NCBI GenBank assembly: GCA_051294375.1
Contig: CM119263.1
Span: 21,560,494-21,624,493, forward strand
DNA from: Paraspadella gotoi
Lineage: Eukaryota; Animalia; Chaetognatha
Direction of reading: 5' to 3'
Length of the DNA: 64,000 nucleotides
Of this stretch, positions 2,176-62,389 are shown piece after piece (within the stretch, counting starts at the first letter, position 1; every line of letters starts with the position of its first letter). The translations under genes were made by a program, and so were the position numbers. The notes below the pieces were generated by a model. That model worked only from the letters and a program-made list of their open reading frames with translations, was not told where the DNA came from and did no database searches.

Positions 2176-4027
2176 ATGGTCGAATCATCGGTGGTGCCTT
2201 CGGGATCTTCGGGGGCATTGGCGGCGCGCCAACAAACCTCGGTGCAGCACGCCGTTATCGAGACGAATGACGGTCGCAAGTTCGAGACCGGTATCATCAA
2301 TACCAAAATTACCGCGGTGACGGACGAAGGGATCGTGGAGAGGGAGGTCAACTGTACGAGAGATAGTCAGTTCTCAACCTCGGAGAATAGAGGTGTGCTT
2401 GCTCTCTCTTTCTCTTTATCTCTCTCTCTCTCTCTTTTTCTTTCTCTTTGTCTCTTGCTCTTTCGTTATAAACTTATGTGTCAAAAAATATTGGCGCACA
2501 TTTATTGAACTATGGTGGACTAAAATCCACCAACCGTTCATCAGCGGCCATTGGTGCAGGAGGCAAGTCATTCGCCTCCCAACCCAAAGGTCCGGGGTTC
2601 TAGCCCAGTGGTCGCCTACCAGTTAAGAGGGACGGGGCGCTTAACCCGCCTGTAACATGGTGTTACAGCCTGATCCGAAGCTCAGGGACTGCTTATATTG
2701 AACAGTTCTGTCACTGACATATAACAATAATTACTGTCTCTTCAGAACTCAATTAAAAAAATCTAAAAAGTTAAATAAAATGATGGTTAATCGGTGATTA
2801 CTGTTTATGAAACTGGTACAACCAATGTCCAAATTATTCATTCATTCAATAAATTAGCTCCCTTGCCCATGACTTCCGTCCGTCCCACCTTAGCAAAAAA
2901 CTCCAATAGCTCGTGATTGGATGGATGGATTGGAAGAGAAATTTTGTGTGTGGGTAGGGAAGCGTGTGATTGAGCTGGACATGAAGTTTCGATGGAATCG
3001 TCCGAGTGGAAATGAGTTTAAATGGAAAAAAAAATTATTTAACTATTTGAACGCCATTTACTCATGAGTGGATGGGGCGATTGACCTGAAATTTTGTATG
3101 TGGGTAGTAAAGTGTGTGATTAAGCTGGAAATGAAGTTTCGATGAAATCGTCCGAGTGGAAATGAGTTTAAATGGAAAAAACAAAAAACTTGTTTCACTA
3201 ATTGATTATGCTTCTTTTTCCTTTTATAATAATTGTAAATGCAAAATGTATTAATTAATCAAATAATTAATCAAATAATTAATTAGTTAATTAATCAATT
3301 AGTCAATTAATTAATCAATAATTAATTAATCAGTCAATTAATCAATCAAAACAAACATTTCGGATCAAATTAATTAATTGCCTAATCAATTAATTAATTA
3401 ACTTAAATTAATTAACTTTAATTAATTAATTAACTTTATTTAATTATTTCCTTAATTATTTAATTATTTCATTAATTAATTAATTAATAATTACCGATAA
3501 TGATCGTGATTGTTTGGTCAAACTTGTTCAAGAAATGTTTCAAATTCTACATTTCATCTTCTTCCAGCCTAACACGGTAACCATAATGACAAGATCTCCG
3601 CCGCCTCGCCCGTCCAACTACTTGTTCCTCGCCCTTTTCACGATAATCTGTTGCTGCTGGCCGCTTGGATGCGTCGCTCTCTGCCAGTCTCTGAGGTCAA
3701 CCTCGAATTACGACGAGGGTGAGTTCGATTCTTGATGGATCACTCTGAATTCTAATTGCCTTTTAAAACTTGGGCACCGGCGTGGATTTATTATCGGTTT
3801 AGCTTTCGGTCACGCTTTTTTGCAATCATGGCTATTGAAAGTGTGATATCATAGGGAGTTGAAATTTTTCTAATCATCAAGTTCTTTAAAATTGTCATGT
3901 TTCATATCTATTTTGAACTAAGTTTGGAGAGTTATTTCGTAACAATATCAATGTTCGTATTTGTTTATGTTTTATTTACAAAACAAAAACGTTTTAATTA
4001 TATGTCGCTTTCTCTATCTCTTTTAAT

Positions 4028-4083
<56 letters not shown>

Positions 4084-6369
4084 CGGCTCTCCCCCGCTCT
4101 CCCCCTCTCTCTCTCTCTCTTTTTTTTTTATTTTTTTTTTTACAAAAACATTTTTATATATATTGTGGGCTGAGCAATGTAAAAGACAATGCGGCAAGCA
4201 AGGCTACGTCCGGCGCCAAAGGTACTGCTGATTCTTTGACGAGTAAAAGGGCTGTGCAGCTTCTCTCTCTCTCTTTTAATTATTTTATAAAGCTCTCTCT
4301 CTCTCTTTTTCTCTGCAGCAGCTGTCCAGCGGCTCTCTCTCTCTTTTAATTATATGTCGCTCTCTCTCTCTCTCTCTCTTTTTTTCTTCTGAATAAGGGT
4401 AGCCCCTGTCAACGGGGTGAATCAAAAATTTTGAATGAGAACATGCTCAAACGAAAATTTAAATATTTTTAAGTATACTTTCAATGTACAAATAATTTCT
4501 TATATGTCTCTATACCCAAATATTTATTTTTTTAAAAGGATTTGGACACTATTCAGATTCGTCTAAAAATGAGTTCAGCTCTGCAGCGGCGGTCCAGCGG
4601 CTGTCCAGTAGGGTGGAGTGATGAAAAGAGCGATGGAACAATATTTTTTTGCTGCCTTTGTATATGTAATAAAAAATAATTAAGCCTTTTTTCAAAAAAA
4701 AATTGCATAACAGTATCATTATTTGAATTTTCTTTATAGTAATATCCTTATAAAATCATAAAATTTCAAAATCATATTTTTTTAATTTTAAAAACAGTTT
4801 TGGATTCGCCGGAAAAAACTGAAAAACTTTTGGAAAATATGTTACATGATATTTTTAGGTTAAAGCTGCGAAAAATGATTAAAAAGTTTCATCATATAAT
4901 AGTTTTTACTACAAAGTGTAAAAAAGTAGAGAATTTAACTTTTTTTTTCATTTTTGACGCTGAAGACATTGAAATTTTTAATAACATATTTTTTATTTTT
5001 GATCTAACTTTTTGTAAAGAATCAGAATCTTTAATAAAATTTTTTTTTAAAAATCTTTAATAAAAATTTTTTTAAAAAATTTTTGAAATTTTTTTGATCT
5101 TATAAGAATATTACTTAACAAAGTTTGGAAATATTTTTCGTCAACGATTTTATTTATTATACGGACATGTTTCGACTCTTCATTTCGAGTCTTCATCAGC
5201 GGTAATGATGCATTAACAAATTTGTGTAAAAGAATATTACTATAAATATATTGTAATTAATGATACTGTTCCCTAAACAATATAAGCAAAATATTTTTTG
5301 TTCTCCTTAATCATACTATCTCACGTTTAAATATCCTTGTTTGATCACTCAAATAAAATTTATGTTCCCCAGTGCTCCACTCTACTGTCCAGTTTCTCTC
5401 TACCTTTCTCTCTCTCTGATTATTTTTTTCCTTCTAAAAACTTTTATTTTCGCCATTTATTCCGCGCTTTTTTACGTGTATAAAAAAAATCAACATGACC
5501 CAATTTCACACGGCGGAAACGTTATGTGTATAAAAAAAATAAACTTGACCTAGATCACGGATAACGGATAACGGATAACGGATAACCAATATAAACGAGA
5601 GAGACCTAATAATGCGTCTCGTTTGCAGGAAAACTTTCGTTGTAAATAAAGTTCAATCGTCTTGACCTAGATATCACCACCGTCACTAGGCGACGAGTAA
5701 ACAAGTAAACTAGTTCCAGCTCTGCAACATCTGTCCATCTTCTTTTTCTCTCTCTATCTCTCTCTCTCTCTCTTTTTTTTTTTTTTTTACAAAAAAAAAA
5801 TTTTATTCACTTTTTTTCGCTTTTCTTTTGTGAATCAGCAGGGCGCGAACCCTAGTCCTTTGGATTGGGAGGAGCTCGCGCTACCTCCGGCGCTACCGGA
5901 CGAGTAAAGGGGCTGTTCAGCTTCTCTTTCTTTATTTCAATTATATGTCGCTCCCGGATTTTTTTATTAATTTTCTTTGATAGTGGGATCTGGCTCGATC
6001 ATGAGTCTTTTAAGATTTTTATTCTAGAGTTTTAATTTCTCATTGCAAGCAAACTAGATCGAAGTACTATATTCCGAAAATATATATATTCCGTACACAG
6101 CTTAGGAAAATATTGATGGCATAGTTAAAAAAATTTTCTGGGTTAATAAGGTAAGGCAAAGCAAGACTTTTCTTGATTAATAATGTATAAATAAATTAAA
6201 ATTGAAAGTAGTCGTTTTCAACTTTTTTATCTTTGCTATAGGCGACATCGACAATGCAAGGAGTTTGGGGAAATCTTCGAGGTGCTGGTCCTCATGTGGT
6301 ATTTTCTTTGGCCTCGTAATTTACATCGTTATTGTTGTTTCGTTTGCCACTCGCAACCTAAGCGATTGA
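2176..6369 (+). CDS. CD225/dispanin (IFITM/PRRT/SynDIG-like) membrane protein; 3 coding exons ~2176-2346, 3568-3718, 6242-6369
   Basis: Exons 2 and 3 join in phase 1 (G|gtgag ... tag|GC) and give PRPSNYLFLALFTIICCCWPLGCVALCQSLRSTSNYDEGDIDNARSLGKSSRCWSSCGIFFGLVIYIVIVVSF. This is the CD225 pattern: CC-x-PLG, GD-x-x-x-A and a second hydrophobic segment. Exon 1 (MVESSVVP...VERE) is phase-compatible but less certain. Confidence 0.85.
2544..2615 (+). promoter_or_regulatory. tRNA-derived (Gly-CCC-like) internal Pol III promoter inside the LTR; also at 17880-17951 and 54078-54149
   Basis: Acceptor-like stem GCGGCCA/TGGTCGC, A-box-like TGGTGC(A/C)GGAGG, loop CTCCCAA and B-box-like GGTTCTAGCCC. The anticodon stem is broken, so it is not a functional tRNA. 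Confidence 0.7.
2619..2692 (+). ncRNA. Twister-like ribozyme (type P5) in solo LTR; predicted cleavage at 2642/2643
   Basis: Same core as 17955-18028, with an 8-bp P3 (CTGTAACA/TGTTACAG). The only loss is the terminal P5 pair. Confidence 0.72.
3250..3492. repeat. (TAAT/TTAA)n low-complexity tract
   Basis: Directly visible degenerate tetranucleotide repeats. Confidence 0.8.
5156..5206 (-). ncRNA. Minimal type I hammerhead ribozyme, Penelope-like-element style
   Basis: Minus strand reads attaccg-CTGATGA-a-GACTC-gaaatgaa-GAGTC-GAAA-CATGTC-cgtataat: intact core, 5-bp stem II, palindromic ACATGT stem III and a GUC cleavage triplet. Confidence 0.7.
5837..5900 (-). mobile_element. tRNA-derived SINE-like head related to the LTR's tRNA module
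   Basis: Minus strand TAGCGCCGGAGGTAGCGCG..CCTCCCAATCCAAAGGAC..GGGTTCGCGCCC shares GCCGGAGG, CCTCCCAAxCCAAAGG and a B-box with the LTR. A related fragment lies at ~4201-4262. Confidence 0.5.
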
Positions 6370-8901: not shown

Positions 8902-11900
8902 ATGTCCGGATCGACTCCCGCGTCCGGCGCCGGAGAAGTCAACAACGAAGGATACGTGCGAGACGGCGTTGAGGACGAATACGAATCTTCACTGGAGAGA
9001 CGAGCGGAACGACAGAGAAAATGGTGAATCATTTCTCATGTGATAAATCACAATGCTGCCGTGGAAAAAGCTAAAGGAACTGCGATCGGGATCACTAATA
9101 GCCGGTCGAGTTATTTTGTGAAGCCACGCCACATTTTATTTTTTTTATTGTGGCAGGACATGAAGTAAATGATTTAATTTTTAAAACTAATGATGGAATA
9201 ATGATTTTATCACAATTCCAATGGAAGGTTGCAAGTATGTATTTATCACCCTAATTTTTTTTCAAAAATGACGTTCAATGATTGAGATATTGATTAGCAA
9301 CCTGTAAAGCCTTTTATTTTACAATACAGTCGCCGGTACGCGTTCTACGGGCTCGCCGGGGCGTTCGTCCTCGCTTTTATCATTGTCCTCGCGGTCACTC
9401 TCTCCCGACGAAAAGTGGTTAGTAGTAAGGAAAGTTTTTCATTTTTGAAATATTAAAAATTTATGATCATACCGATTAATTCGATTTAGCTTAGTCGGTT
9501 GGGTACAAATTTTCTTATTAACTGTATTGGTACTAAAAATTACTAATTTAAAGAGTTTAAATTTTGAAATAAGTATATTAACCAAAGGAAACTCGTTTTA
9601 CCCGTTTTACGCGGGATTAATAAAAAATCTGTCGAAGATTTGCGATTAAAAGATTAATAAGTGAAATAACGTTAACGGTTCACTATTTGGCTAATATTTT
9701 AGCGTTTAATTTGAGAAATGCTTTAAAGCTGATTCAAAAAATATTTTGTTAGCTAAGGTGTTGTGATATTCAATTATTTCGTCTTTAAAGAATTTCTTTT
9801 TCAATTGTGCCTGTATATTACATAATGAATTTCTTCACGCCGCACAGCCGGGTGGCTAGAAAGTCTTCTCTGCTCCACCCATCGTTTTCGGGTTCGCGCC
9901 CCGCGGTGGCCTAGTATAGTAAAATAGACGGGCGGGAGTACCCTCTGAGGGACTTAAAAATCATATATTTTAGTATAACCATTCATAACGTTGAATAATT
10001 TGCGCTAGCGGTAATTAAATTTGATAATTTTTAATTATTTTCTTAAAATTGTAAATAAACTCGTAAATTATAGATATGAACATATCAAATAGTTTCGGCT
10101 AACTTTTAAAAACAATGAAATTTAATAGCAATGACACAACCATCAGGAAGCTAACGTTTAACTCGTAATCAGGTAAGCTAAGCTCCACCCCCTAGGTATT
10201 TAAGCAGGTTTTCAGCTTTTCTACTTTATATCTATCTCGTCCGTTTTGAGATTGACACCGATGTTGCAAAACTTTTTCACAAATGTTGAATCGAAGTTTT
10301 TTCAATCTCGGCTTGATCGCTCTCAATGGATGTTGCAAAAAGCAATGTTCAAAAAAATTCGCCGGAAAACTGTTTTATGGAAAATACGGAAAAGACCCAG
10401 GATTTCTCGATAACATTTATGTAAAAGCGAAGTATAAAATAAATATTTTAAGTCTAATGAATTAGAATGTAGTATTTAGAACATTAGGTGCTATTTTGGA
10501 AATCAAAATCTAATTTTAAATTTTAAATATAAATTCGTTTTTTTTACGAGCCTTTGTCTATTAATCAAAGTATACAATATACATACTGAACTTGCTTCTT
10601 GTACTAATGTACAATGTCGCCGAGAAAAATAATTCCGAGTCTTAACGGGTTGGCAAGTTGTGGATTTATTTAACATGTTCTTTCGTAAAATTTACTTGTT
10701 AAGAAAATCAAAGGCATACATGTATTTGTGGACCTAACCAAAATGAAAGCTGCAGAACCTTACCCTTCAGCGCGATCCCAATGTCTGGGCGCCGGTTTTA
10801 TCCGACTCCGTCTTGGGCGTTTACGAAAATGCGGCAGTCGCATCGGATGGCATCACCTGCAGTAAAGTTGGAAGGTAAGTGTCGACTGGCAACATCATTT
10901 TTAAACGGCTTTATATATTTTGGAGAGTACCGTCTTCCTCAGATCATAAACCACAAGGAATAATATCTATTCAAAATGAAAAACATGATGCTACTATGTA
11001 AAAATTCTATTTTATAAACAACGATAATAAAAAGATAGGTTAAAACTGAGAGCAATTACAGGGTTCTATATTTTAAGAAGTTAATTTCCAAAAATTCAAG
11101 CTTTCGATATTTTTCTTCAGCGATTTCTTGAAGGCCGGCGGTTCAGCCGTCGATGCTATGATCGCGCTCGCTCTTTGCAATGGATTCAACAACATCCACT
11201 CCATGGGAATCGGAGGTAGGAATTAGTCAACAGGAGTAGATATGGGTCTCAAAGCGTGAAGGTGATGGTTTAACAACGAAAATTAATTTTTTCCCCCATT
11301 TTTTGATTTTGTGCTTAACAAAATTTTAAATTATTTATCCTCTGCCTCACCCCATCTAAGGTGGTTTCATAATGACCTACTACAACGCTACCACCAAAGA
11401 AGGTCACGTGATCGACGCCCGCGACTGCGCTCCCCTCAAAGCGACGTCGCACATGATCGTCAACGACACGAATCATTGGGCAGGTTGGGCTCACCACTTT
11501 GAAGGAGCAAGGGGGGAGCGGGCTGTAGTGTTTAAAGACAATAAAGACAACCCCAACATCCTCGTTTCGAAAGATTTACTTTTAACTATTTAATTTTAAA
11601 ATATCGTCAGGCCCGCTATCGATCGCCGTGCCTGGAGAGTTGCAAGGCTACTGGGAAGGTGAGATCGTCAATGTTGTTATTGTTAATTTTATGAAAGGTT
11701 TCTTAGAATTTTCATTCATTAACTTGTACAAAACTGCTTTTTTGTTTCTCTTTCAGCCCATCAAAGGTGGGGCCGTCTCCCGTGGGCGTCGCTGTTCGAA
11801 CCGGCGATCAGAATGGCGGAAGAAGGATGGAAGTTTAGCCGAGAATCCGCCCATTGGGTTCGTTACGTGATGCCCGTTATCAAAATAAGCAATTCAAACC

Positions 11901-14579
11901 TGGGGTGAGTTATTAGTTCATCGTTGGTGAATGTTAGATTACAATATGAAACTTCCGTATTATTTCTATCAATTTGTAAAATCTTGTCAGTGACCTGCTT
12001 TACAAAAAGAAGGAAAAGCGTTGGATGGATACGGGGGACGTCGTTAAAAATCCGAAGTTGGCCCAAGGTGTGAATTTTATTTTAGTATTTATTTTTAAAA
12101 AGTTATAATTTTACTTTCGCCGACTAAGGTTAGGGGAAGTTTAAAAGTAATTTTGAGTTAAAGCTAGTTAGTTAAAAAAAACAGTTGGATAATTTTTAGG
12201 TCAAGGATCGAGCGGTAGATAATTTTTATTTTTAAATTTTTTTTAATGAAATTAATGTAACCAATTTATAAATGATATATTCATGACTTTTGACAGGCTT
12301 TGGTGGTTTAAGGCCTCCCTCACATTATTTAAGTCAAAATCCCAGTCGGCGAAAGTAAAATTTGACCTAAAGAATCGTGACGGGCGTTGGTAATTTTTTC
12401 CCCATTTTAGTCCTCCGAGCCGTGGCCCGCGACGGCCCCAACGCCCTCTACAATGGGGAATTCACGGACCGCGCCGTCTCAGAAATCAAGGGTCGCGGCG
12501 GCATTCTCGTCAGGCAAGACTTTGAGAATTACCGCGCCGTCGAAAGGAAGCCGGCCGTCTACACCATGAGGAACGGATGGAAGATTTACGGGTCTCCGCC
12601 GCCCACTTCGGCGGCTGTTGTCGAGTTTATCATCAACATTATGGAAGGTTCGTCATTTATATTGACGTTTAGCTATATTTAAAGCCCATCTCATTTTTGT
12701 CCATCATTTTAAACTTGTTTTGTATATTGTACAAGAACTATCATTTGACGAACGATTGTAATGTCGATCTTCAGGATATCCGATCAACGAATCGACGCCA
12801 TTGGACGAGGAGGCTCTTCTTCTTCACTTCCACAGGTGCTTTTGTGGTTTTTTTTATCTTTGTGTACTTAATCCGTTCACAGTAGCAATTCGAATTTTTT
12901 CCTTTGCCCTTTTCCTAAGATTCGTGGAGTCGTCCAAGTTCGCCTTCGGCAAGCGTAGTTTGTTTGGTGATCCCAAATTTGTCAACGTCAATTCAATCGT
13001 CAAAGATCTCGTCTCTCATGGTTTCGCCGAATCGATCAGAAAGTAAGTCTTTCACGGGATCCTCAACATTTCCTTCGTACTTGCACGGCTTAATCAAAAA
13101 CAATTTTTATTACATTATTCACAGGCAGATCACTGATCGACCGCATGCTCCGTGGGTCTATGGTCACTCTGAGGCCGTTCCGCTAACGGGAACTAGTCAC
13201 AGCAGCCTTTTGGTAAATTTCATTTTTATGAAAAATTACGAAATTTCTGTTAGTTGTAGCGCTTAATGTTGTCCAAGATGTTTTACGCAAAAACAAACAC
13301 AGCTTTTGTTTTTCTCGCTTCGCGCAAACGCGCTACCTTTCGTGACTGTTCTATTGTTTTCCAGGCTCCAAACGGAGACGCGGTTGCCTTCACCTCGTCC
13401 GTCAACGGGTATTTCGGTACGAAAATCATCGGAGAGAACACGGGAATCATCTACAACAACAACATGCAGGATTTTGCCATCCCGGGCAAGCCGGACATGC
13501 ACGCGTTGCCTCCGGCTCCGACGAATCTCATCGAGCCCGGTGCGTGTGACGGTCTGATTGCCGCGTAATCCGAAATTGACATTGATGATATTAAATTACT
13601 TGACATTAACAATAAATCCAAAATGGCGATCTTTTGTTGGTTTTAGTTACTGTGAGTTTATTTTCGTTTTAGTAAGTCAGCTTTTCAAAACTGTAATTTT
13701 CACCACTACTCCAAAACCTTCCCCCCTCCAGGCAAGCGAATGATGAGCTCCATGTGTCCCATCATCGTGACAGACGACAAAGGAAAAGTCCGCGTGGTCA
13801 TCGGCGCCAGCGGAGGCGCAAAAATCATCACATCCGTCGCTTCGGTGAGACGCTTCTGAGAACGGGAGCGATTGGGCGTTGGATTTTGAAATTAGTTTTC
13901 CAAAGTTGGTTACCCTTTTTGGGTCAAGACCGAAAAAAAAATATTCCGATCAAAATGATTCTTTGGCCTGATTTTCAGATTTCATTCCCTTTGCTAACGA
14001 ATCAACTAACTTGCCAACTTTATACTAGTTTGTCGTCCATTCTCGTAAACTTTTTCCTATAAGTTGTGATTTACAACTTTCCCTACTCTTTTTCCTTACC
14101 CCCTTTCCTCACCGCCTCCCTAACCGCACCCTCTTCCAGGTTCTAATCAACCACCTGTTCTTCAAACAAAACATCAAAGAAGCGATCGACATGCCCCGCC
14201 TTCACAATCAACTATTCCCCGACTCCACAGAGTTCGAGGCGACGGCGCCCGAACCCGTCGTCCAAGACTTTCACGAGGAATTCCACCAACCCATTAAGGT
14301 AAGTTAAAGCCATGGGTAATTTTTATGAGTAATTTATGTTAAATTTAATCTTCTAAAAATTAAAATGTATAAGTGATACTGCTATTTCTAGGATTGTTTT
14401 CAGTTCAACTAACCTTATTCGTAATACTTAAAAAGTAATTAAAATTACCAGTCTTTTCCCTTTCACAGAAATCGCGCGAATGGCGAATCGGAATCGTCCA
14501 AGCCATAACGGTCGACGACAATGGCGTCATCAACGCCAACTGCGATTACCGCAAAGGCAGCGCCCCCGCGGGATTTTAG
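8902..14579 (+). CDS. GGT: Gamma-glutamyl transpeptidase (glutathione hydrolase), type II membrane protein, ~16 small exons
   Basis: Spliced fragments carry the GGT motifs in order: N-terminal TM (AFYGLAGAFVLAFIIVLAV, ~9330-9417), AAVASD..CSKVG (~10771-10874), GGSAVDAMIA..HSMGIGGGF, IDARDCAP, SIAVPGELQG, GGIL..DFENY, SPPPTS, FVESSKFAFGKRSLFGDP, catalytic GTSH (~13190), TSSVNGYFG..GIIYNNNMQDF, PGKRMMSSMCP, IGASGG, PRLHNQ, DYRKG..AGF*. Stop codon at 14577-14579. Confidence 0.95.
9838..9912 (+). mobile_element. Degenerate tRNA-derived SINE-like head in a GGT intron
   Basis: GC-rich island with A-box-like CAGCCGGGTGGCTA and B-box-like GGGTTCGCGCCC. Confidence 0.35.
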
Positions 14580-15211
14580 GAAGAAAATGGCAAACTTGAA
14601 CCCCCAGAGCTTTTCGCCCTCCATAGGGCGTACTGAGGACGTTTACTCGGTTTCGAAGAAAAATGTAGAAAGCTAATAACCAATTTTACATTTTCAAAAA
14701 TTATAAGCTTAATTTTTTAACAAAAAAACACGTGGGTCTCGAAATTGTAATTTTTTTATCAAATCTATTATTTAGAATCCGTCCATTTAGCCATGGGTGC
14801 AATTGTAGAACAGTAAATCGTGAGTTCGAAATTTTTTTTTTTTTTTTCATTTTACCTAGTCACTGCCGCGTATTTTTAACATTCTACGGAGGATTTACCG
14901 TCCGTTTTTTTTTCTGTACAGTAATATTCAATAAAAAAGTTTAATATTTTGGTGTTCAATTAATAAAGCAAATATTAAAGCTAAGGTAAAGCCATGTTTT
15001 TCAAAGTAGCTTAATATAGGATTCGACGTCGCTCTTAAAAATCGAAAAATATTTTTTCAATGGAGATTTTCGTTCAAATCTGACTACCAAACAATATAAA
15101 CGACCCCGGGAAAAATTAAGGAAAAATATAGATGTAAAAATGCTCATTCCAATAGCATTGCATCTGAAGAGCTCGTATTTTTTTATCTTGTCAAATCATC
15201 ATTTTGATATG

Positions 15212-15391
15212 GAAGAGACAGTAATTATTGTTATGACAGAACCATTCAATATAAACAGTCCCTGAGCTTCGGATCAGGCTGTAACACTATGTTACAGGCG
15301 GGTTAAGCGCCCCGTCCCTCTTAACTGCGAGGCGACCACCCGGCTAAAACCCCTGACCTTTAGGTTGGGAGGCGAATGACTTGCCTCCGGC
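15212..15391 (-). mobile_element. 5'-truncated LTR copy on the minus strand
   Basis: The reverse complement matches the LTR from GCCGGAGGCAAG to ACTGTCTCTTC; the twister region (15255-15328) is retained. Confidence 0.85.
15255..15328 (-). ncRNA. Twister-like ribozyme (type P5) in truncated LTR
   Basis: The reverse complement retains UAA, GA-CGG, UCCGAAGC, P3 and P4; the terminal P5 pair is G-U. Confidence 0.68.
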
Positions 15392-17846: not shown

Positions 17847-18080
17847 TATGGTGGACTAAAATCCACCAACCGTTCATCAGCGGCCATTGGTGCCGGAGGC
17901 AAGTCATTCGCCTCTTAACCCAAAGGTCCGGGGTTTTAGCCCGGTGGTCGTCTGGCAGTTAAGAGGGACGGGGCGCTTAACCCGCCTGTAACATGGAGTT
18001 ACAGCCTGATCCGAAGCTCAGGGACTGCTTATATTGAACGGTTCTGTCATTAACACTTATCAATAATTACTGTCTCTTCA
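17847..18080 (+). mobile_element. Solo LTR of the twister/tRNA LTR element
   Basis: Full 234-bp unit flanked by TSD TGTT (17843-17846 and 18081-18084). Confidence 0.9.
17955..18028 (+). ncRNA. Twister-like self-cleaving ribozyme, type-P5 permutation (best-preserved copy); predicted cleavage at U/A 17978/17979
   Basis: GCAGTT(P5) AA GAGG(P2') GA CGG(T1) GGCGCT TAA CCC(P2) GC(T2) CTGTAAC-atgga-GTTACAG(P3) CCTGA(P4) TCCG AA GC TCAGG(P4') GACTGC(P5'). The L4 CCG pairs with CGG and GC pairs with GC. P1 is minimal and P2 is 1 nt short of the usual 4 bp. Confidence 0.75.
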
Positions 18081-19828
18081 TGTTATAACTTTTAACTGAT
18101 TGATTGTGATCAATATTAGTACATTTTATAAATTGGAAATTGGACGTTTATATTTTTTTAAAGCAAATTGATAATACTTTATATCATAATAACTGGTGCG
18201 CTTTTTTTCCAGCTTTTTTTACAATATTTTTCCCTTCTTATTTGATATTTCAATTTTAAACTTATTGTAAAAAAATTGAAACAAATATTTAAAATATTTT
18301 ATATTCATTAGTTAATATAATATTTTGGGAGTATGTAAAAAAATTTTATTAATAGATTTTAAGGTTTAGTTAGGCAACAGGTTTTTGCCAGATTATTATT
18401 TTTTTATAATTTTTTTTTACGCTGAAATTTTTATTTTTTTAATTAAAAAAAATTAAAAAATGAAAAAGGCTGTTAATGTGGTTATGAATAAGCTTTTGAC
18501 ATTCAGATTATTTAGACACATACTCCACTATTTATATTTGTAAGATAAACCGAAATTTTTAAATATTTTTTTTTATAAAAATATATTTTATAATAATGTG
18601 TTATTCAAATACAAATTTTTTTTTTTAAATTCGACCATGCAATTGATGAGCACATAACTAAGAATGTAAGCAAGCAAGATTATTGGCAGTTGGAAAATGA
18701 TAAAAAAATTGTTATGGTTTTTTTACCAAAGTACAAAATCTGCAGTTGTTATAACAAATAATTTAGCCACAGTATTTGATCCTTTCATTTCACTCCCATT
18801 TGAAATCCGTGTAATTTTGTAACTTTACAAAGTAATCAAGCTCTGTCTACCGTTTTATTCCGTTGTTTTGTCTCGTGACGTCAATTTGTTTTTTATACTC
18901 GGTTTAATCGTGAGGAACTCGAGACATAAAAAAAAGCTATAGAAAATTAGCGAATTGTGACCAATGAAACTTGATCATTGACTGGAACTGAATTCCTCTT
19001 TCTTTTCGTTGTCGTCGTCGCCGTCGTCGGCATCGCGTGATTCTTAGCGAAGAAAGAAAGAAATACGAAAAAAAAAACCATTTTGGAAACAGAAAAAAAA
19101 ATTAAAATGTGGCTAAGGTGCGACGGTATGGCGGTAAAAAATTATTCTCGCTACTGGATGCGGATGGAATGTCGGAACAAGGATCGTTCAGATTTCGAAC
19201 AGATATCATTTAATATTGACGAATGTAGCTGTAGTATTTCATACCCCGTTACTCGTTCGAGAATCAGCAGCACCTATGGCGCCAGAGGTAGCACGAGCTC
19301 CTCCCAACCCAAAAAAATATATTTGTACAATGTACAGGGCTTGGATTAAAAGTTTTTGATTTTATTTAAATGGCAAGAGAATTTTAAATATTTTATAACA
19401 AACGTAAAAGAGCTCAAATGAAAGCTGTCTATTCTAATTTTCAATTATTAACTTAGATTATAAATGAAATCAATATCCCTCTGCGCCTAAATAGATCTAA
19501 TGTTGAGTCCCCAGTAACGTAAGATTTCCATAAAGTTTGCTGCATCAGATGCGACTTGAAAAGACAAATGTGGAGGAGAAGTGATAATATCAACTCATGA
19601 GCGATTTAATGGCTAAGCTTTTGGACAACTTCAAAATTTAAAAAAATATGATTTCAAAAATTATAAATACGGGTGAGAAGACAATATAGAAAAATTAAGG
19701 CAAAATAATTATCAAAGAACATGTCCACGTCCCCAAGCAACATTGATGAAATTACAATTCAAAAAAGCTTAGCTATACCTTATATCAAAATTTATCCACC
19801 AACCGTTCATTTGCTTATATCAAAATTT

Positions 19829-19967
19829 ATCCACCAACCGTTCATTTGCCTCCTAACCCAAAAGTCCGGGGTTCTAGCCCGGTGGTCGCCTAGCTGTTAA
19901 GAGGGACGGGGCGCTTAACCCGCCTGTAACATGGTGTTACAGCCTAATCCGAAGCTCAGGGACTGCT
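19829..19967 (+). mobile_element. Internally deleted, end-truncated LTR copy overlapping a 35-bp tandem duplication (19779-19848)
   Basis: ATCCACCAACCGTTCAT is joined directly to TTGCCTCCTAACCC, which removes the A-box; the B-box and twister region (19893-19966) are retained. Confidence 0.85.
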
Positions 19968-21216: not shown

Positions 21217-24057
21217 ATTAACATAAACGCCATAAAAATTACCCGAGGCATTCGCAATTAGAATAAAGATGAAAGATGGCCGTTTTATGAATGCTCAGAG
21301 ATTTCCCGGAAGCCTTTTCATTTTTTTTTTTTTTTTCAGGTAAAAAATAGTACACACTCAAATAAAATCTTTTTTTTTGTCAAAGACTTAGTCCTGTGTA
21401 AAAATAAACGCGCCACTTTATTTCAGACTTTAAAAATCACCCTATATACTTGAATTTTTTTAAAAAATTTAAAAATTATTTAAAGTTTATTGAAAGATGA
21501 TAAGTTTGGCATAAATTTTATTAAAATTTGGCTATTCGTTTAGGAACAATTATTTTTTTAAAATGAAGTATAAATTACTTGATAAATGTAAAATAATCTG
21601 ATAGATTTAACCTTTCTTCTTCTGATATTTTATAATACTTAAAATAATTTAAAAATTTAAAAAAATAAAACTGGATATCCAGAGGGATAGCTGGATAACT
21701 GGATTACCCCAAATCCCTAAATGATAATCGTACGGTTATTAAAACATACGATGAAAGACAGGTCCATGATTCTGAAGCTTTTACACGGATTTCAAATGGG
21801 AGTAAAATAAAATGATCAAATATTCTAACTAAATTATCTGATATAGCAACTTCAGACTTTGTACCCTGATAAAAAAATTTACTAAAGTTTTTTTTATTTT
21901 TCAACTCCCAGTAGTCCAGCTTACTTACTTTCTTAGTTATGTGCTCATCAATGGTATGATCAGGTTTAAAAAAAAATAATTTGAATTTGAATAAAACCTT
22001 CCTGTTATAAGATGTAGTTTTTTAAAAAAAATCAAATGTTTTAAAATTTTGGTTCATCTTACAGATATAGACATTGAAATATGTATGTGTCTGAGCAATC
22101 TGAATGTCAAAAGCTTTTTCATAACTAGCGGTAGCCGACCAAATTCAAATTTTAATGGGAACAGCATTAAACTAATCCATTATTGGTATTAATTATTGTG
22201 TTAAAATATTTTTTTGCAAAAATGTTCCGAACCATGAGTAATTTGCTAATTAATATTACTATATCGCTATATAATTTCAAAATTTTTTTGGATATTTTAA
22301 GTTTTTTTAATTGATTCTGATAGAGCTTAAAAAGTTAAGCAAAAAATATAATTACAACTTTTTAAAATTTTGATGTTTTATTACTAAAAATTAGTAAAAA
22401 CTGCTAAAATCATCGGATGATGATGATGATGATTTTTTAAGGTTTTTCCCAATTTTAACCCACTTATCATCAAAATATTGAAAAAAGAATTGTACTTTGT
22501 GTAGATAACTTTTCATACGCTATTTGAATCTGCTTTTAAAAATAATATATATATCCTATCTATAAATAAATATTAAAAAATTAATTACTAATGCTTCTTG
22601 CCATTTTAGAAAATTTTGCTACATTGAAAGTTTTCTCAGAAATGTATGAAGTTTCATTTGGAAAGGTTCTCAAATCAAACTTCTGACCCACCCCATTGAC
22701 GAAGTTTGGCTCTATCATAACCACAATGACAGCACTTTTAATTTTATAGTTTTTTTAGTTAAAAAAAATCCGTGTAGATAAAAATCGATTTTCCTGTTTG
22801 GTTTTGGAACACGCAAGTATAAAAAATTATTTTTTTTTGCACAGGACTGTATTGTTCGAATATTTTTCTCATTTTTATTCTTAGATTTTAAATTAATTAA
22901 ACTTAGCCAATGTTATTAGATGCATTTCTTTTTTTTACTAATGTTATCACCGCGTACTAAGAGCAGCTGGGATTCTGAACTTAATTTAACTTAATCTTGT
23001 CTCAAATGTAAAAAAAAGTCAGACGGCTATAAACGTGTTTTGTCAAAAAAGTCAAAAATGTAATTATTTTACTACTTTTTAAAATAATAATTCAAATTTG
23101 CCTAAAAAGAATAAAGAATAACCAACACAATAGGTCACAATTCTATTTTTTTTTTTTTAATTTACGAATTTTTATAGATTTATTAACAGATTTACAAAGA
23201 TTCGTTCAAAAAAGTTGAGAGGACGAAATATAATTACATGTATATAAATTATGTATCAATTTTAAAATCTTATGAAGAGTGTACTATGTAAAAATGAATA
23301 GCCTACTGTATATTTAAACAATAAACATTTAAAATTTGTACCGGACATAGCCAAGGTTCATCCCGGAATTAATCATAGTTTCCTGACACTTGCTCTCTAC
23401 CATAAAATGTCACTTTCATTCCATCAACTCACCCTCGATCATTCCCTTCGCAGCCCCTTCTTCGATCGAGCGATTCCGAGCTTCCTCCTTTTCGATGACG
23501 TCGTCGTCGTTATCGTCGTCGTTGCGAACTTCACCCACAATACCAAAAACTTTCTTTCCCCGTCGTCGTCGTCGTCGTCGTCGTCGAAAGCCTCATCGTT
23601 CGACGATTCCTCCAAAAAAAGAAGACGAAGATATTTAAAAAAAGACAAATCGACGAAGAACTGGATTTTTGTCTTCGATATCCGGGACTGGATACTTAAG
23701 AATCCGAATAAGTAGAATTGCGCGATCGAAAAAAGGGCAAAATGCCGTCAATCGACGGTCAATGACTTTGTCAAATAAGATGACAAAAAAATAAAATGAC
23801 AAAACTTGATATTTCTAAAAGGCCTGCTCGTTAACTGGAATCTACTTTTATAAATAAAATAATTAACGCGTGAAAAAAAATAAAGCCTAAAAATTACTTC
23901 TCACGAACTAAAACTAAAAATTAACAACAAAACAAAACTAAAAACTATGTTGAAAGAATTTCCGGCTTAAAACGAATTCGTTAAATGAACTAAAAAAATC
24001 GATTTTTCGGTGGAAAATCGAAATTTCAAATCAATTTATTTGTTTCGCTTTCGCGTC

Positions 24058-24855: not shown

Positions 24856-27800
24856 GCCCAAAAATTCCTTCCCTACTTAGTTTACTCCTTCTTTTCAAGA
24901 TAAAATCTCTACTAATCGCGAGTCAAATCTTCAAGAAGGCATCGCTTTCGGTCTTTCCTTTCTCTCTCCTTCGAACAGGGATAACAATAAATTATCCCCG
25001 GATTATAATATTCCCCCCCCCCAAAAAAAAAGGGAACGAAAAAAAAAATAATGTTAAGGAGAGATTAAGCGAATAAATTCGGTTGGATGAATTGAGGGCG
25101 TTGTTTTCGTCGACGACTCCGTGAGATAAGAGGAACGCCTTCCATTCATCTTTTGTTTTCCCGTTGGTTGTGAATTCACGTGAGATGCGTGGAATTCCTT
25201 AAATGCCACTCGGGATGAAGTCACGAGAAACCCATAGCATAATTTCTGCAATATATGGAGACTAATTGAATTTATTGTTTGACGGGTGGTAAAATGATGA
25301 CCAGTATGAGATCGCATATGAACGTGAATGTAATTCGATTCTTCGATACTTCACACAATAATTCCATTTTTCCGTCATCCCTCTTACAGGAACTCGGGTC
25401 AAAAGGAGACGAAGAAATGGAATTTCTCCCCAATTCCGAAAACTTTATCGCGATTCCAAAGCCTAATCCAACCCCGAACTTACCCCCAAATCAGGATCAA
25501 AACCCAAATTCTAACCCCAATACAAACTCAAAATCTAATCAAATCTCTAATTCATACCCAAAGTCCAAAGCGAGATCGAACACTAAAAAATCCAGCAAAA
25601 GATCGAAAGAAAAATCTCTCGATTCATCTCACTCTTTGGACTTTTGGAAATCTTTCAAGGTTTCTAATTTCGAGACCGCTTCCAAATCTATGAACGAGTC
25701 TGAATCCGTAAACGTTTCTAAATCTTCCCACGCATCCAACTCAAAAAACTTTTTAAATCTTTCCAACGATTCCAAACCCTTAAACCTTTCACACACTCCA
25801 AATTCTTTTAACACATCTTTCGCTCTGAATTCTTTGAAACCTTCCGAGTTTTCCAACAGACCAACTCCCTCCCGAGAGACGAACGAAATCCGTCCAGTGC
25901 CTCCAACCGACCGTTCGAAAAGATCGTCGATTCGGACTCGAAAAATCCAAGAATTTCAGGCGATCAAAGGCTCGAGTTTATCGCCGGGCACTGGAGCAGA
26001 CCTTTCCGTTCCGCGGTCGCCCGAAAATTCGCCCGGCAGCCCGCCCAGAGATTTTTGGAGCGGAGTAGATGTTAACGGGTGGACGGAGAACGACAAAGGA
26101 GCGAAGGGAACCGAGGCAAACGAAGACAACAACAACAAAAACGACGACAAAATCGATGATACTCTGTCCGGGAAGCATCTGTTGTGGCACCCAGACAGCG
26201 CCGGGTGCCGGGACAAGTCTCACTACGCGGCTCCACGAGACGATTCGTCGAAAGGGGCGTGGGCAGAGGGGGAGGCGGCGGAGAGGTTGGCGTGGGAATT
26301 GTCCCGGTTCGAGGTGGAGGGGCAGGAGGAGGAGGAGGAATCTGTCCATCACGTGATGAAACGAAACGCTGATCAGGTGGCTTTTGTAGGTTTTTTGTGC
26401 TTTTTTTGTTTTATTTAATCAAAAGATTTATATTGTTTGTATCAAATTCTTATTTAATTTTACGTTACATTTAAAAAAAAAAAACAGGCCGGCGATAACC
26501 TTTCGCCTACGTGGGAGGACGGTTCCGGCGAGGAGCCGACCGACGCCACGCCCCCTACGACGGATAATATGACCGACGTTCCGACGGCAAAAGTGCCGAG
26601 AGGTCTGCCGGAAACGACAGCGTCCCCCAACGCGACCCAGGCGGAGATGACACAGGCTGGAGTCACTACGGGGCCGTCGCCAACAACACAGGCTGGCGTC
26701 ACTTCGGCGGCGGCGGAGACGACGCTGGCCGACAACACGATGTCGTATTGCAACGACGACGAGGACTGCAACATCGAGAGCAACGAGCGTTGCACGAATT
26801 TCCAGCGGCGCCGCAGCGTGACTCTCGTACGTCGCCGGACGGGGCTGCAGCCCATTTGCAAGTGCATGCCGAATTTCATCAGATCTAAGTTGGAGACGAC
26901 CGAGTTGTCGAATGAGTGCGAGGCGATTGTCGAGGTGAGATTGGATTTTTTTTACGTATACCATGATGGAAAAAAAAATTGTCCTGGTTACTTTCCAGCT
27001 ATTTTTCGAGATTTTAATGTAAGAATAAAAAAAATTAAATTTAAATATCAAGAAACTTTGGCCTTTTGTGATTCATATGAGCCATGTCTCATTTATGTAC
27101 GACAAAAAATATAGGAGTTCCATGCAAAAGAAAATGAGTGGTCCAAAAAAAAGCTTATGTCTTTATTTTTTTCATATCTACTTTTATCACATCGCCAAAG
27201 CCCTGGCGATATCGCCATGGCGAAGTCGCCAACCAACTAGAACCACACCTACGACTCGTGCGTGAATCGCCGGCGACATCGCTATTTGATTGAACTACAA
27301 CTTAGGATATTACTTTAAAAACAAATTAATTAATAATATTGTTATGCAATTTTTTTTTAAAAAAAGGCTTAAATATTTTTTATTACATATACAAAGGCAG
27401 CAAAAAACATTGTTCCATGGCTCAATCTTTTTATCACTCTACCCTACTGGAGACGTCACTGAGGGTGGAAAGCTCCTAAAGCCAACAGTAAGATGCCATA
27501 TCCTAATGGGCATCACAAGCAACCCGGCTGTTGCCATGATGCAATAAATAATTTTATGTTGTTGAAAAATAATTATTTTATTCAGTCTTAAGGAGGTTAT
27601 ATTATATATTAAAACTTATTTATTAACCAAAAAATATATTTGACAATGAAATTAACTGACTTTCAAACCGCGACAATTTTTTTTCCATCATGGTATGATT
27701 CTGTAAATGACAGAAATGTCAAAAAACAAGTGTGCTACAACGAGTACTATTGTCTAGTATTAAAATATTTTTTTCCGATTATGTGTCTTCATCGTCCCAA

Positions 27801-29175
27801 CCTTCCTGCCAAACAGGTCGTCAGCGTGACACTCGTCTGCCCCGTCGAATTCAACACCATCTACGCGGACAAAACCTCTTCGAAGCATCTCGAATTCCTC
27901 TTCTACATTCAGAACGTCTATTGCGACTACATCTCTATTATAATCAAGAGAACCTGTTTTTGCGAGATCGAGACAATAAAGAGCGGTTCTACAGAGATCG
28001 AGTTGCTCATCTCCGTTGCCGCCGGAAATAAAACAAAGAACAACGCCACAGAGTCCACAACTCCCTTGCCCCTTCTAACGAACACCACTCAACTTCTCCG
28101 CGAGGCCGCCAAACGCGCCTTCAACGATTTAATCGAGGAAGTCAACCTGGCGACGATCGATCCAAACGTCACGTCGACGCCAGGACTCGATCCCGGCGTT
28201 TACCTGGGCCCGTTCCGCGCCGCCGTCACTCGGCTCTCCGTCAACGAAGACTTTTATGTCCGTGAGAACCCCGTCCCGTCGACAAACCCTTGCCTAGATC
28301 CCGACCGCAATTATTGCGACAAGGACAACAACGGCGCCGAAGCCGAGTGCATCCCGGGTCCGGATAATAAAACGTTGACCTGTCGATGCCGAGTCGGTTT
28401 CCACGACGTCTCCTACGTGCCACGATCAGCGCCGGGCGAGCACTGCTCCCCCGTCTGCTACGAAGGATATTGCCTGAACGGTGGACGTTGTTACAACGAC
28501 AAAACTGAGCCGCTCTGCGATTGCAACGCCTGGTACAACGGTGTCCGATGCGACGTCGATCTCTGGGCGCTCTTGATTAGCGGCATCGTGTTTCTCTCGT
28601 TCTTCCTCGTCCTCATCATCGTGGGGTTGACGCGATGCGCGAGGAATCGTCTCGAACGTAAAGGGTCTTATTCTGTGGCGGAGGAAGACCGTCGCCTCTT
28701 TCATCGCGACGCCGCCGTCTCCCGTAGCCTGGATCCGTTCGATTTGACCTTCGATCCCGGGGAATACGAGTTTCTCTATGCGCCTGTGGACGCGCGGACT
28801 GGGGAGATCGTCGCTCTCGATCCCAATCTTCCGCCCGAAGAGAATCTATACCGTCTGGTGCCAGAGATCGACGTAGGGGATCCGCCGTGGCCGGCGCTGC
28901 GACGCCTCGCCGACCCTGGCGGCGGACGCTGGGAAGACGACGTCACGCAATCGATTTTTCTGCCCATTCCGCGTCCAACTCTGCGGCGGCGGTCGGACGT
29001 GCCGACGCCGCCCGGTTCCATGACGCGGTCGTCGTCGGGGGCGTCGTTGGTGATCTCACGCAGAAGTTCGACGGCGCCGGATGTCGACCTCGCTTGCGTC
29101 GGCCTCTATCCGAATTTGTTTGCCGATGACGAGACGTTACAGATTCCGAGGCCTTCGGTCATTACCAAACCGTAA
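24058..29175 (+). CDS. Single-pass mucin-like protein: S/T/N-rich region, EGF, SEA-like, EGF, EGF, TM, cytoplasmic tail; exons ~24058-24264 (tentative), 25390-26376, 26488-26934, 27817-29175
   Basis: Phase-0 GT-AG joins link ORFs 25279.., 26569.. and 27640... The product has a Thr-rich stalk, a Cys-spaced EGF (CNDDEDCNIESNERC..CKC..C), a SEA-like segment with KSGSTEI, two EGFs (NPCLDPDRNYCD..CRCRVGF; CYEGYCLNGGRC..CDCNAWYNGVRC) and a TM (LWALLISGIVFLSFFLVLIIVGL). The first exon is uncertain. Confidence 0.8.
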
Positions 29176-30468
29176 CCGGCGATGGCGACGAAGACGACGA
29201 CGACGGCGTTAACGCCAGAATTTTAACCATCATACACTGCGGCGCAAAAAAAAAATAAGACACTTGTTAGCTCTAAATACCCCACTATTTCTTTTTTAAT
29301 CTTAAAAAAATATTTATAAAAAGTATAGGTTTTTTAAAAATTTATAGATTGATGCAAAAAAAAATTAATTGGTTCAGGCAGTAGATTACAGCAATATTTT
29401 AAAGTCAAAGTCTGAAAACGGAATTAGGAAAAATGATTTTTGGAGGTTAAGTTCATGATATTTTTTTTCTGACTGATAACAGTGTAACAGTGTAACTGGT
29501 GTCATATTTGACTCGACGTGAGTTGATACGATGTTAAAAAACATCTTCCGGAATTTAGCTTTAATTTTTTTCCGTAATTTATTTTGACGTCCAATAGACC
29601 ATGGCGCCGAGACAACAATGACCAACTGGTCATGATAAAAACTTATGATTATTGATTTTTTATTAGGTTCATTCTTAGAAATTTCTCTCCTCCCATTTGC
29701 ATGCAAAATTACTAAGGAACGTGCCATATGGTCAAAATATCTGTGTTAAAACTGTTGAGAGAAAAAGATAAGGAAATATTGCTACTTTATTGTTTCCGTT
29801 TCTGACTCTCATTAATTGAATACTCTCGACGCAAAGATTTGTACTCATTGCTAATTATTTGAATGATAATAGTGAAATATTTACTCTGACATTTTATTTT
29901 ATTTCCTATCATCTTATTAGTTAGAAAAAGAAACCCATCAAAGCTATTAAACTGATTTTTATGAATCTTTTTCATTATCTCTCATTCTCTCTCTCTCTGT
30001 TTATAAACAAAGGTTACGTAGTACTGGACGACCTGTGGATAAAATTGGCTAACTTGGGTATTTGGTAGTTATGATCTCTCATATTTGCTTTTAACTTAAA
30101 ATATTTTGTAAAAATGTTTCTCATGGAGAATGAAATTATGAACGAAAAATGAAAAACACGATTAACTTTTACAGTAAACAGCATTACAATTGTAAAGCTC
30201 TATTTTGGGATAATCCTTTCACTCGTACCAAAGGTTCGTCTTCTGAGAGACAACGTAGGAACTAGGATCTGTTTTTTAAGATACTCCCGGGAAGACGTGA
30301 ATTTCTTCTGTTGCTAAGCGTCCCTCTCTGAAACTAAGGGATAAAGAGGAAGATCTTGTCAATTTTCTTTTTCTAATGTTTGACGTCCAATCATTATCAA
30401 CTGGAATTCGATAATTTTCGCACGAAATTTCCTCGTTTTCACCTTGTGTAATTTTAAGGTCGTTGAAA

Positions 30469-31628
30469 ATGGATGAAGATAACGAGTCAGAAAAAGTCGA
30501 AACGGAGGAACGGACGATCGGCGAATCTCAATCGAAAGATAAAGAAAAAAAAGACGAAAAAGAAAAAGAAAAAGGGGGTAAAGAGAATATCAATGAAGAA
30601 AATGATGTCAAGATGTCGGATGAGAGCGAAAGTAAAAATAACGACATTATTGTGGAGGACGCCAAAAGAAAAAATATTAAAAATGATGGTGAGGAAAATT
30701 CCGGTGAAAATATTGGCGATGAGAACTATGTAAAGAAGGACGAAACAAATAAGGAAAATGCAACGGAAGGTGAAGAAAAAGGTCATGAAAGGAATGATCA
30801 CGAGTTAAATGAACAAGAAGACGAAAAAAGCGAAGTGGATAAAAAAGATACTAAAAATGATGACGAGAATGAAATGAAAGAATCAAGATCCGAAATAAAT
30901 GGAGAAAATGAGGAAATTAAATCTGTTAATTCCCCTGCGAGGCAAAATTCGAAAGGCAATAAAGACGGCGGAATAAACGACCAAAATGGCAATGAAAAAA
31001 ATCAATCAAATGATAACAATAGTGAAAACTGGCGAGTCGATGGAAATGAGCAGACAACAGAAAACCCAACATCAAATGGCGATGGCGTCGCAGAAGCAAC
31101 AACAGCATTTGTTTCGACCAAATTGCGAAAAGAAATGGAGTCCAAAGCCAACGTGGGCACCATTCTCACTTGGCAGTACGCGGCGGCCATGGCTCAAGAG
31201 GGCGCGGCGACGGAATCTAGCGGAAATGACGCAGAACCGGAAGTAGAGTTGACCTCTGGCGCCGAGGTGGGCATGGCGGCTGCCTATGCAACTAAAAAGG
31301 GAGATCTGCAGCACAGAGAAGAAGGAGAAGTCGAAGAGAGCGAAGGCGAATCCGAGAAGAATTCAGAGAAAAAAGTGGAATCTCAAGTTGAGAATGAGAT
31401 TAATGTTGAAAATATAGCAGCCTCAGATGCAGAAGTAGTTCCTGTTTCTAAAGGGAAAGATGCAGGGGAAGCAGTGGAAAAGGCGAGTACCTTTGATGTG
31501 GAAACGAATCAAAAGAAGAATGAAAAGCGTGAAACACAATCTGAAGGTGAAACAGGTAACAGTTAACGAATTTTAAAATTCTGTGTACAACCATGTATTC
31601 GATATATTTATGATACTCGATGCAATAT

Positions 31629-31715
<87 letters not shown>

Positions 31716-38032: not shown

Positions 38033-45162
<7,130 letters not shown>

Positions 45163-46942: not shown

Positions 46943-47520
46943 TTGAGCAATATATTTCGGTTAACATCGCTTAACCATAGTTCATTTGCGAAGTAAATGC
47001 GAGAAAAACAGTCACAAAAAAGTAAAAAATATTAAATAATAATAAAAAAATAATAGAGAGAAAGGGAGAGAATAAGAATGAAAAGAATCATGAGGTCAAA
47101 GTTAAGGACAAAAGTTCAAGAGAAAGAAAGAGAGAGCCTGGAGAGAGCCTGGAGATTCGTCGTCAAGGGACAGAACCGGGAAAAGGCCTCAACGGCGATC
47201 TCTCTAAATACGTCAAAACACACGCATGGAATCTCATCTTCTACAAAAACTAAAAGACTATTGAAGATCGGGCGGTGGTTCTTTCTCTTTCTTTCTCTTG
47301 AACTTTTGTCCTTAGCTTTGACCTCATGATTCTTTTCCTCTTTTCACTCTTATTCTCTCCCTTTCTCTCTCTTTTCACCAAAATATTTTTTACTTTTTTG
47401 TGACTGTTTTTCTCGCATTTACTTCGCAAATGAACTATGGTTAAGCGATGTTAACCGAAATATATTTCTCAAATAAAAATAATATGCGTTTTCCTCATAA
47501 AACGATGTTAATCACCAATA
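46943..47520. mobile_element. Long-TIR MITE, same family as 41002-41184
   Basis: Inverted arms of ~200 bp (GGTTAACATCGCTTAACCATAGTTCATTTGCGAAG... / ...CTTCGCAAATGAACTATGGTTAAGCGATGTTAACC) around a short GC-richer core. Confidence 0.8.
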
Positions 47521-48315
47521 TTGTTTGGTTTACCATTCACAAGTTGTCGTTTCCGTTTTATTCCAAACTTATTACAAACGGCACGCTCGATCGCTATATC
47601 ATCGCAGGAGTATCAGTCTCACCAAAAGTGGAACCGGATCGGAGGATCGGGCAATCGCCGCCAGAATGGAATCGCCGAATCCATGAGTTTTTCCTTCAAT
47701 GTCTAATTGTATATATCTTCATCATTAACAGAACAAATGGTCCTGACTGCGAAATTGACTAATTTTCATGCTCCTTTAAAATTTACGTGTCAACATTAAA
47801 AACGAAAACAAAATTTTCCGAATATTTTCTTCTCGTTTTTTCTAGACATTGTTAGGAACAGAAACAATTAACATATTCAAGATGTTTTAACAAGCAACAG
47901 CGACATTTAAGGGGAACGAGAGAGAATTTTAGGCTTCGAACGAATAAAAAAAAATAATTGGGCGGCGATGAGGGAATATTTCTGCTTTTTTAATCGGAGG
48001 CGAAGACTTACAAATTGAGGGAAATATGACAACATAATATTTTCTTTCTTTGTGTTTGTGATTGTTTGGGTTTCGATTAGGGGGAAATCGTTTTAATTTT
48101 GGGGGTCAATTAGAGGGAGCTTGAAGGGGGGGTGATAGAGAGGAAAGTATCTAAGCGACAGGGGAACGGGGGTTGAGGTTTGAAAAAAATATTGGGGAAT
48201 ATGGCAAGATGAATAACAGGGAAAGGTCACGTTCATCCAAGACACGTTCATCCAAGATGGCAAGATGAATAACAGGAAAAAGTCACGTTCATCTAAGATC
48301 TTTTTCTCGCCAAAT

Positions 48316-62389
<14,074 letters not shown>

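Follow-up and report, generated by a model that had tools for sequence, protein, structure and literature searches.

LTR retrozymes have been described from plants, in which they carry hammerhead ribozymes, and the retrozymes described from animals are of the non-LTR kind. The plant LTR retrozymes (PMC4918200, PMC7761336, PMC9695139) are non-coding, depend on Gypsy elements, make a 4-bp target duplication and have a PBS, a polypurine tract (PPT) and a ribozyme in each LTR; two cuts in their transcript give a unit-length RNA without an R repeat, which is copied as a circle. Helenus elements (TRIMp3; Kojima 2024, PMC10886601) are less than 1 kb long and have two LTRs, a PBS, for which the tRNA-Trp type is known, and a PPT; their animal families make a 4-bp duplication, their partner is presumed to be a Gypsy element, and the LTR contains a non-functional tRNA-like sequence with the motif GGTTC. 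The element described here, found in a 64-kb stretch of Paraspadella gotoi DNA (the window, by which we mean the whole stretch analysed), shares all these structural features, and appears from them to be a junction of the Helenus-type TRIM and the retrozyme, two kinds of element that are described only separately in the literature searched. It differs from Helenus in carrying its tRNA-derived head in the 5′ half of the LTR, in having a twister ribozyme instead of a T-run, and in its weak A box. The plant retrozymes, for their part, are larger, have plant hosts, a type III hammerhead and a tRNA-Met primer, and a tRNA-derived promoter is undescribed in the sections of those accounts that we consulted; circles have been shown for them and are predicted for the present element. 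Neither a twister within an LTR nor a ribozyme in a tRNA-bearing TRIM was described in the literature that we searched, Repbase, Dfam and most subscription papers lying outside that search and possibly cataloguing the family, and the exact LTR motifs of the element are absent from the Helenus consensus file (PMC10886601).

Six copies of a 234-bp LTR repeat lie in the window. Three loci retain both ends (2511, 17847 and 53636–54277), and all three are bounded by a 4-bp target duplication; the four LTRs that retain a 5′ end all have the termini TA…CA rather than the TG…CA used to define TRIMs, and an LTR beginning with TA is also found in Helenus-3_MeDo (PMC10886601). The copy at 2511..2744 (+), 234 bp from TA to CA with its ends set by contig flanks, is a solo LTR with a target duplication of its own, GAAC. 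It had originally been taken as the partner of the LTR at 54045–54277, but the true pair is 53636–54277, and a single 52-kb element spanning 2511 to 54045 is ruled out by the target duplications. A second solo LTR (17847..18080, +; duplication TGTT) and a 5′-truncated copy (15211..15391, −) have an intact twister core and a run of four T (T4) in the B box, at 15346–15349 in the latter, and a rearranged LTR fragment (19794..19967, +) carries a twister with mismatches in P4 and P5. In that fragment, a short tandem duplication at 19776–19850 joins foreign sequence to the 5′ part. No tandem multimers of the element were seen in the 64-kb window. The boundaries of the LTR are sharp in the public contigs: run X1 has 198 loose contig ends at position 2511 and a further 112 at position 2744, all with unrelated flanks. 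Contig depth, summed across the LTR, exceeds that of unique flank by about four orders of magnitude, depth not being equivalent to copy number.

The only two-LTR copy (53636–54277; target duplication GTAA) is 642 bp long and carries a deletion, the size of the element being about 657 bp. Its 5′ LTR (53636..53855, +) has lost 14 bp over the 5′ arm of the head and has a damaged twister core and a T4 at 53817–53820. The LTR is followed by a tRNA-Trp-type PBS (53856..53869, +), 13 of whose 14 bases are identical to the PBS of Gypsy-32_NVi and Helenus-2_SyJa, at the start of a non-coding interior of 189 bp (53856..54044, +) that lacks T4, contains an internal 48-bp repeat and gave no Pfam match in the one frame scanned. 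A PPT (54031..54042, +) ends 2 nt ahead of the 3′ LTR (54045..54277, +), in which two changes in loop 4 break pseudoknot T1. The locus has, then, the two LTRs, the length below 1 kb, the PBS and PPT and the target-site duplication of a TRIM; of the features of retrozymes, it has a ribozyme motif in each LTR, both damaged in this copy, a PBS, a PPT and a 4-bp duplication, and it departs from them in having a twister and not a hammerhead, a Trp-type and not a Met-type PBS, and animal-type genes nearby. The direct repeat in the interior (48 bp, 53898–53993) is 77% alike between its halves. The two LTRs differ from each other by 20 substitutions in 219 aligned bases and by 15 gap columns, and the 3′ LTR shows 17–18 differences from the solo LTRs, of the same order as from its own 5′ LTR; by these distances, the copy is an old or recombined insertion.

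The head, which occupies the 73 nt at 2544..2616 (+), has a long closing stem (2544–2554/2605–2615) and no cloverleaf. Its motifs lie where the original prediction had placed them: the outer stem at 2544–2550/2609–2615, an A-box-like sequence at 2552–2563 (+), CTCCCAA at 2576–2582 and a B-box-like sequence at 2596–2606 (+). The A box is weak, with two mismatches to the consensus (three in the copy at 17847); it has TRG, and YGG in most copies, but the CY of TRGCY is absent, and the head misses the TRGCY motif of most Helenus families. The B box has one mismatch to the consensus and has T at a purine position; GGTTC is kept in four of the six copies, this one included, the other two having a C-to-T change; the B-box pattern has four matches in the window, all of them within LTR copies. 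In the predicted fold, the long closing stem and two hairpins form a stable three-way junction, and the head folds better than its own shuffles (z −4.9, with none of 200 as good), the corresponding values for two other copies being −2.3 and −2.2.

The head aligns to tRNAs nearly without gaps over the 73 nt. We compared it with 11 of 14 fetched tRNA calls: z values were 4.8–6.2 against four tRNA-Asn and one tRNA-Ile that had been fetched with the head motif, 2.7–4.3 against three tRNA-Lys, one tRNA-Pro and one doubtful tRNA-Met fetched otherwise, and 0.9 against one tRNA-Leu. The score against the five unselected tRNAs was 194, compared with a background of 117 ± 16 for 1279 GC-matched 73-mers taken from outside the LTR copies, and the sole background 73-mer that scored as high (5831–5903, −) is itself a homologous tRNA-like head. 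Outside the fetch motif, the 5′ halves beat all but 6–232 of 2000 shuffles. The cloverleaf is eroded, with three of five pairs left in the anticodon stem and two of five in the T stem in the standard register; ARAGORN found no tRNA gene in the head, and Rfam reported neither tRNA nor twister at the gathering score over the window, or at E ≤ 10 in 2400–2900, 2605–2705, 17870–17965 and 5750–6000. On the strength of the alignments, the head is tRNA-derived. Among the fetched tRNAs, the best-fitting donors would be Asn and Ile, but the method favoured them in part, the fetch having used the head motif itself and yielded four tRNA-Asn and one tRNA-Ile in five loci. The resemblance to tRNA-Gly(CCC) that had been put forward is unsupported rather than excluded as a pointer to the donor: none of the 15 loci containing the quoted Gly 15-mer was called tRNA-Gly. 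The head motif had no match in viral contigs, and a blastn search of the head against phages gave an 18-nt chance match only.

Use of the head as an internal Pol III promoter is likely, given its boxes. Of the tRNA-like Pol III module originally proposed to be fused to a ribozyme within the LTR, the tRNA ancestry, the fusion and the location in the LTR are thus borne out, and Pol III use is the part that we infer. It could be argued that the transcript of this retrozyme comes from Pol II or from read-through, and that its head is no working promoter but a relic, or serves in structure or packaging; the weak A box, the imperfect B box and the refolding of the head into a stable three-way junction would agree with this, read-through transcription has been proposed for retrozymes, and under a double cut the unit would be the same wherever transcription began. 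We nevertheless think it unlikely, because what the head has kept best of its tRNA is the B box and the distance between the boxes rather than the cloverleaf, and because the main LTR type and the interior are free of T4.

The twister lies directly behind the head, as predicted, after a spacer of 3 nt (3–4 nt across copies). It occupies 2620..2691 (+), was identified by pattern search and by comparison with published twisters, and is a P5 permutation with P3. On the same strand, P5 comprises 4 bp in the copy at 2511 (2620–2623/2688–2691) and extends to 2619–2623/2688–2692 in most copies; P2 (2645–2647/2627–2630) has 2–3 bp with a bulge, P3 spans 2651–2667, P4 has 5 bp (2669–2673/2682–2686) and P1 is at most 1–2 bp. 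Pseudoknot T1 consists of three pairs and an A·A (2633–2635/2675–2677) and T2 of 2 bp (2648–2649/2680–2681). The general base is G2631, and the predicted cut, 2642^2643, falls within the U^AA of L1, which holds the general acid and A+2 (2642–2644). A descriptor built from the twister consensus, applied to both strands of the 64 kb, gave three matches, all in LTR copies, and none in 20,000 shuffles of the LTR; by this measure the core is intact in three of the six window copies, while T1 and T2 are intact in four, and damage to the core or to a stem is seen at 53636, 54045 and 19842. The general acid, A+2, the general base and the loop-4 A are all kept in the core. In T1, the CCC/GAGGG of published Schistosoma mansoni twisters is replaced by CCG/GACGG, a two-sided change that preserves pairing, although no two-sided changes occur among the six window copies themselves. 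Every catalytic and pseudoknot position of the motif is right, and cleavage is predicted. Searches for relatives of the twister gave none in viral contigs and one chance match, within a coding region, in metagenomes.

A 6-bp GC helix across the cut site is predicted to compete with the twister: the predicted minimum is −24.0 kcal/mol, compared with about −12 for the nested twister fold, pseudoknots being uncounted, and the pairing probability of P3 and P5 is about 0.15 in the copy at 2511, compared with 0.74–1.0 for most pairs in two other copies. On another view, the element would be an ordinary Helenus-like TRIM whose twister, held in the competing fold, is carried along without acting; the gap of about 12 kcal/mol before pseudoknots, the failure of Rfam to report the motif and the near absence of P1 would speak for this. 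We judge it very improbable, since the catalytic and pseudoknot positions are all right, the two-sided change in T1 included, and since an RNA with neither terminator nor ribozyme would have an undefined end. Flaws of a similar kind in P1 and P2 are tolerated by tested type-P1 twisters.

Variation across the family bears on the same point. The tally took in 40 of 48 variant rows from public contigs of the same organism; these 40 comprise six variants private to the copy at 2511, six at subfamily level, for which the cut-off was a frequency of at least 10% in runs X5/X8, and 28 minor ones. Of the six subfamily variants, the spacer and the P3 loop hold one each and the 3′ tail holds two, and the remaining two lie in the closing stem, whose pairing both keep. 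None touches the boxes or the twister core; the sparing of the core argues against a silent twister, and six variants are too few to set the boxes against the flanks. This placement fits constraint on stem and core. The B-box change that creates T4 occurs at a frequency of 0.5–4%. CpG transitions account for 16 of the 28 minor variant rows (in the same 40 of 48), whereas CpG bases make up 24 of the 122 G/C positions in the LTR at 2511–2744, and this excess suggests that the host methylates the repeat.

The end of the RNA is a separate matter. The original prediction had T4 runs in two other copies; they occur in three of the six (17934–17937, 15346–15349 on the minus strand, and 53817–53820), and the last of these belongs to the 5′ LTR of the single copy that has both LTRs. 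The main LTR type and the interior do lack T4, as had been stated, but this is unremarkable by chance, since 53–67% of shuffles of the LTR, and 19–38% of shuffles of LTR plus interior, lack it too, and we rejected the absence of T4 as stand-alone evidence. T4 is a context-dependent terminator, and the first T-run in the flank stands 10–198 bases past the LTR in three copies. The position of the ribozyme is more telling. Among the published Helenus LTRs in parts 7 and 9 of the PMC10886601 supplement, read by eye, T4 or longer follows the tRNA part in 31 of 35 (22 of 24 complete LTRs in part 7 and 9 of 11 in part 9), and the twister sits where these have their T-run, consistent with the suggestion that a ribozyme could define the RNA end in the terminator's stead. 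Of the four exceptions, two have only T3, and the others, Helenus-2_SyJa and Helenus-2_SyUm, have at the T-run position what looks by eye like a complete type III hammerhead, with a 12-nt loop–loop match. In the main text of PMC10886601, ‘ribozyme’ occurs once, in a reference title, and ‘twister’ not at all, and the Helenus hammerhead goes unremarked there.

These two families, from Synergus wasps, resemble the present element, again by eye, in having a tRNA-like part followed by a self-cleaving motif, an LTR without T4, a Trp-type PBS and a short spacer between PPT and LTR. They differ in that the ribozyme is a type III hammerhead with a long loop–loop match and in that the interior is longer and contains T4 runs, and there is no evident sequence likeness.

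Taken together, these observations lead us to propose that the element is a non-coding mini LTR retrotransposon (TRIM) in which the head serves as a Pol III promoter, a twister cuts in both LTRs to release a 423-nt circle, and a Gypsy-type partner provides for copying; we consider the chances that this is right to be even. In this scheme, TFIIIC would bind the A and B boxes and Pol III would start near LTR base 34 (2544), a position covered, in the copy at 53636–54277, by the 14-bp deletion. As the head is not followed by a T-run, transcription would continue across the interior and beyond the 3′ LTR into flanking DNA. Each twister would then cut after LTR base 132, which would remove 99 nt from the 5′ end together with the 3′ tail; the distance from cut to cut is 423 nt, and this unit would probably be ligated into a circle. 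Priming by tRNA-Trp could take reverse transcription round the circle, which would make an R repeat unnecessary and restore the promoter in both LTRs, and Gypsy integrase would insert the resulting DNA. More speculatively, the competing helix could act as a stem that holds the ends together and silence the ribozyme in the circle. The 5′ product of about 100 nt foreseen originally would indeed measure 99 nt if transcription starts at 2544, although it would be tRNA-like over the 73 nt of the head only, the remaining 26 nt being spacer and ribozyme. In the only two-LTR copy, both ribozymes are damaged, the 5′ arm of the head is deleted and T4 is present.

Self-cleavage had originally been assigned to the 3′ LTR only. 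Because both LTRs carry the same ribozyme, and the 5′ one is finished first, a double cut is the default. A linear template with one effective cut would require the 3′ twister to make the 3′ end while the 5′ twister is slow or trapped, leaving a 99-nt R repeat for strand transfer. The competing helix could slow 5′ cleavage in this way, the ribozyme occupies the Helenus terminator position, and the RNA that Cassandra uses is a Pol III product carrying short repeats at its ends. The sequence, however, does not favour the 3′ twister, because the two LTRs are identical on insertion, and the primary transcript of one plant retrozyme was wholly self-processed at the LTR ribozyme; a single cut is, in our estimation, improbable. 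Under the double cut that we prefer, the arrangement is akin to the Tornado system (10.1101/2020.09.11.294140, 10.1101/2023.07.11.548538), with its Pol III transcript, two twisters, RtcB ligation and end-pairing stem; in human cells, the combination of Pol III, two twisters and RtcB is enough to produce circles, with a stem keeping the ends together. Tornado differs in being engineered and immobile and in its external U6 promoter.

Two further comparisons concern animal elements. The SINE-like hammerhead repeats of Schistosoma (PMC6765202) likewise unite, within a single short repeat, a Pol III promoter with a ribozyme that cleaves itself, but they are non-LTR, tandem and hammerhead-based, and single copies lose the promoter, which replication through LTRs would restore in the present element. 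The twister variants of Perere-3/RTE (PMC8501958) are also twisters in an animal retroelement with a reduced P1, but lie at the 5′ end of autonomous non-LTR elements, have the P1-type topology and cut once. A bolder reading, to which we would give slightly less than an even chance, is that animals have here an LTR retrozyme that combines a twister with a Pol III promoter of its own, derived from a tRNA, in effect a natural Tornado cassette that retrotransposes by way of a 423-nt circle; with the Synergus Helenus-2 families, it would form a class of Pol III TRIMs in which the T-run terminator has given way to a self-cleaving ribozyme on two or more occasions, two unrelated ribozyme classes being involved. 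If true, the family would provide an animal LTR retrozyme with a twister in the LTR, a promoter inside the repeat and RNA ends made by self-cleavage, and twister ribozymes would gain a further natural function; the abundance of the repeat would then lead one to expect plentiful small circular RNA in the host. Rfam and ARAGORN miss both the head and the twister, and more such families may hide in repeat libraries.

A second repeat family in the window carries a homologous tRNA-like head, at 5829–5915 (−), 19244–19315 (+) and about 4238–4283 (−). It has the same CTCCCAA loop, a better A box and GGTTC, and none of 1000 shuffles scores as well; the A box of the related head at 19279 reads TGGCG. 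Two copies read together show that the sequence of the closing stem differs from that of the LTR head, and no ribozyme was seen behind this second head, which presumably also resembles elongator tRNA-Met. The family could be a SINE or a sister TRIM, and the donor of the LTR head.

Elsewhere in the window, Pfam matches mark the exons of an intron-containing gamma-glutamyltranspeptidase gene (11360–14304, +), a CD225 exon (3484–3732, +), C2H2 zinc-finger exons (41940–42716, −) and an MFS transporter exon (62157–62723, −). The first three of these, whose genes contain introns, indicate an animal host, and protein searches aimed at a narrower lineage gave no match. Long open frames at 27613–29175 (+), 30415–34687 (+), 43255–45213 (−) and 48316–51405 (−) gave no Pfam match where scanned; one encodes a cysteine-rich EGF-like stretch and a hydrophobic segment, for which a homologue search was empty, another an acidic repeat protein with repeats of about 123 bp, one is of 1029 aa, and one has several motifs that we take to be AT-hook-like. 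Other dispersed repeats are found at 22296–22699 and 61219–61683, at 1781–1891 and 2900–3160, and at 41090–41195 and 47426–47531.
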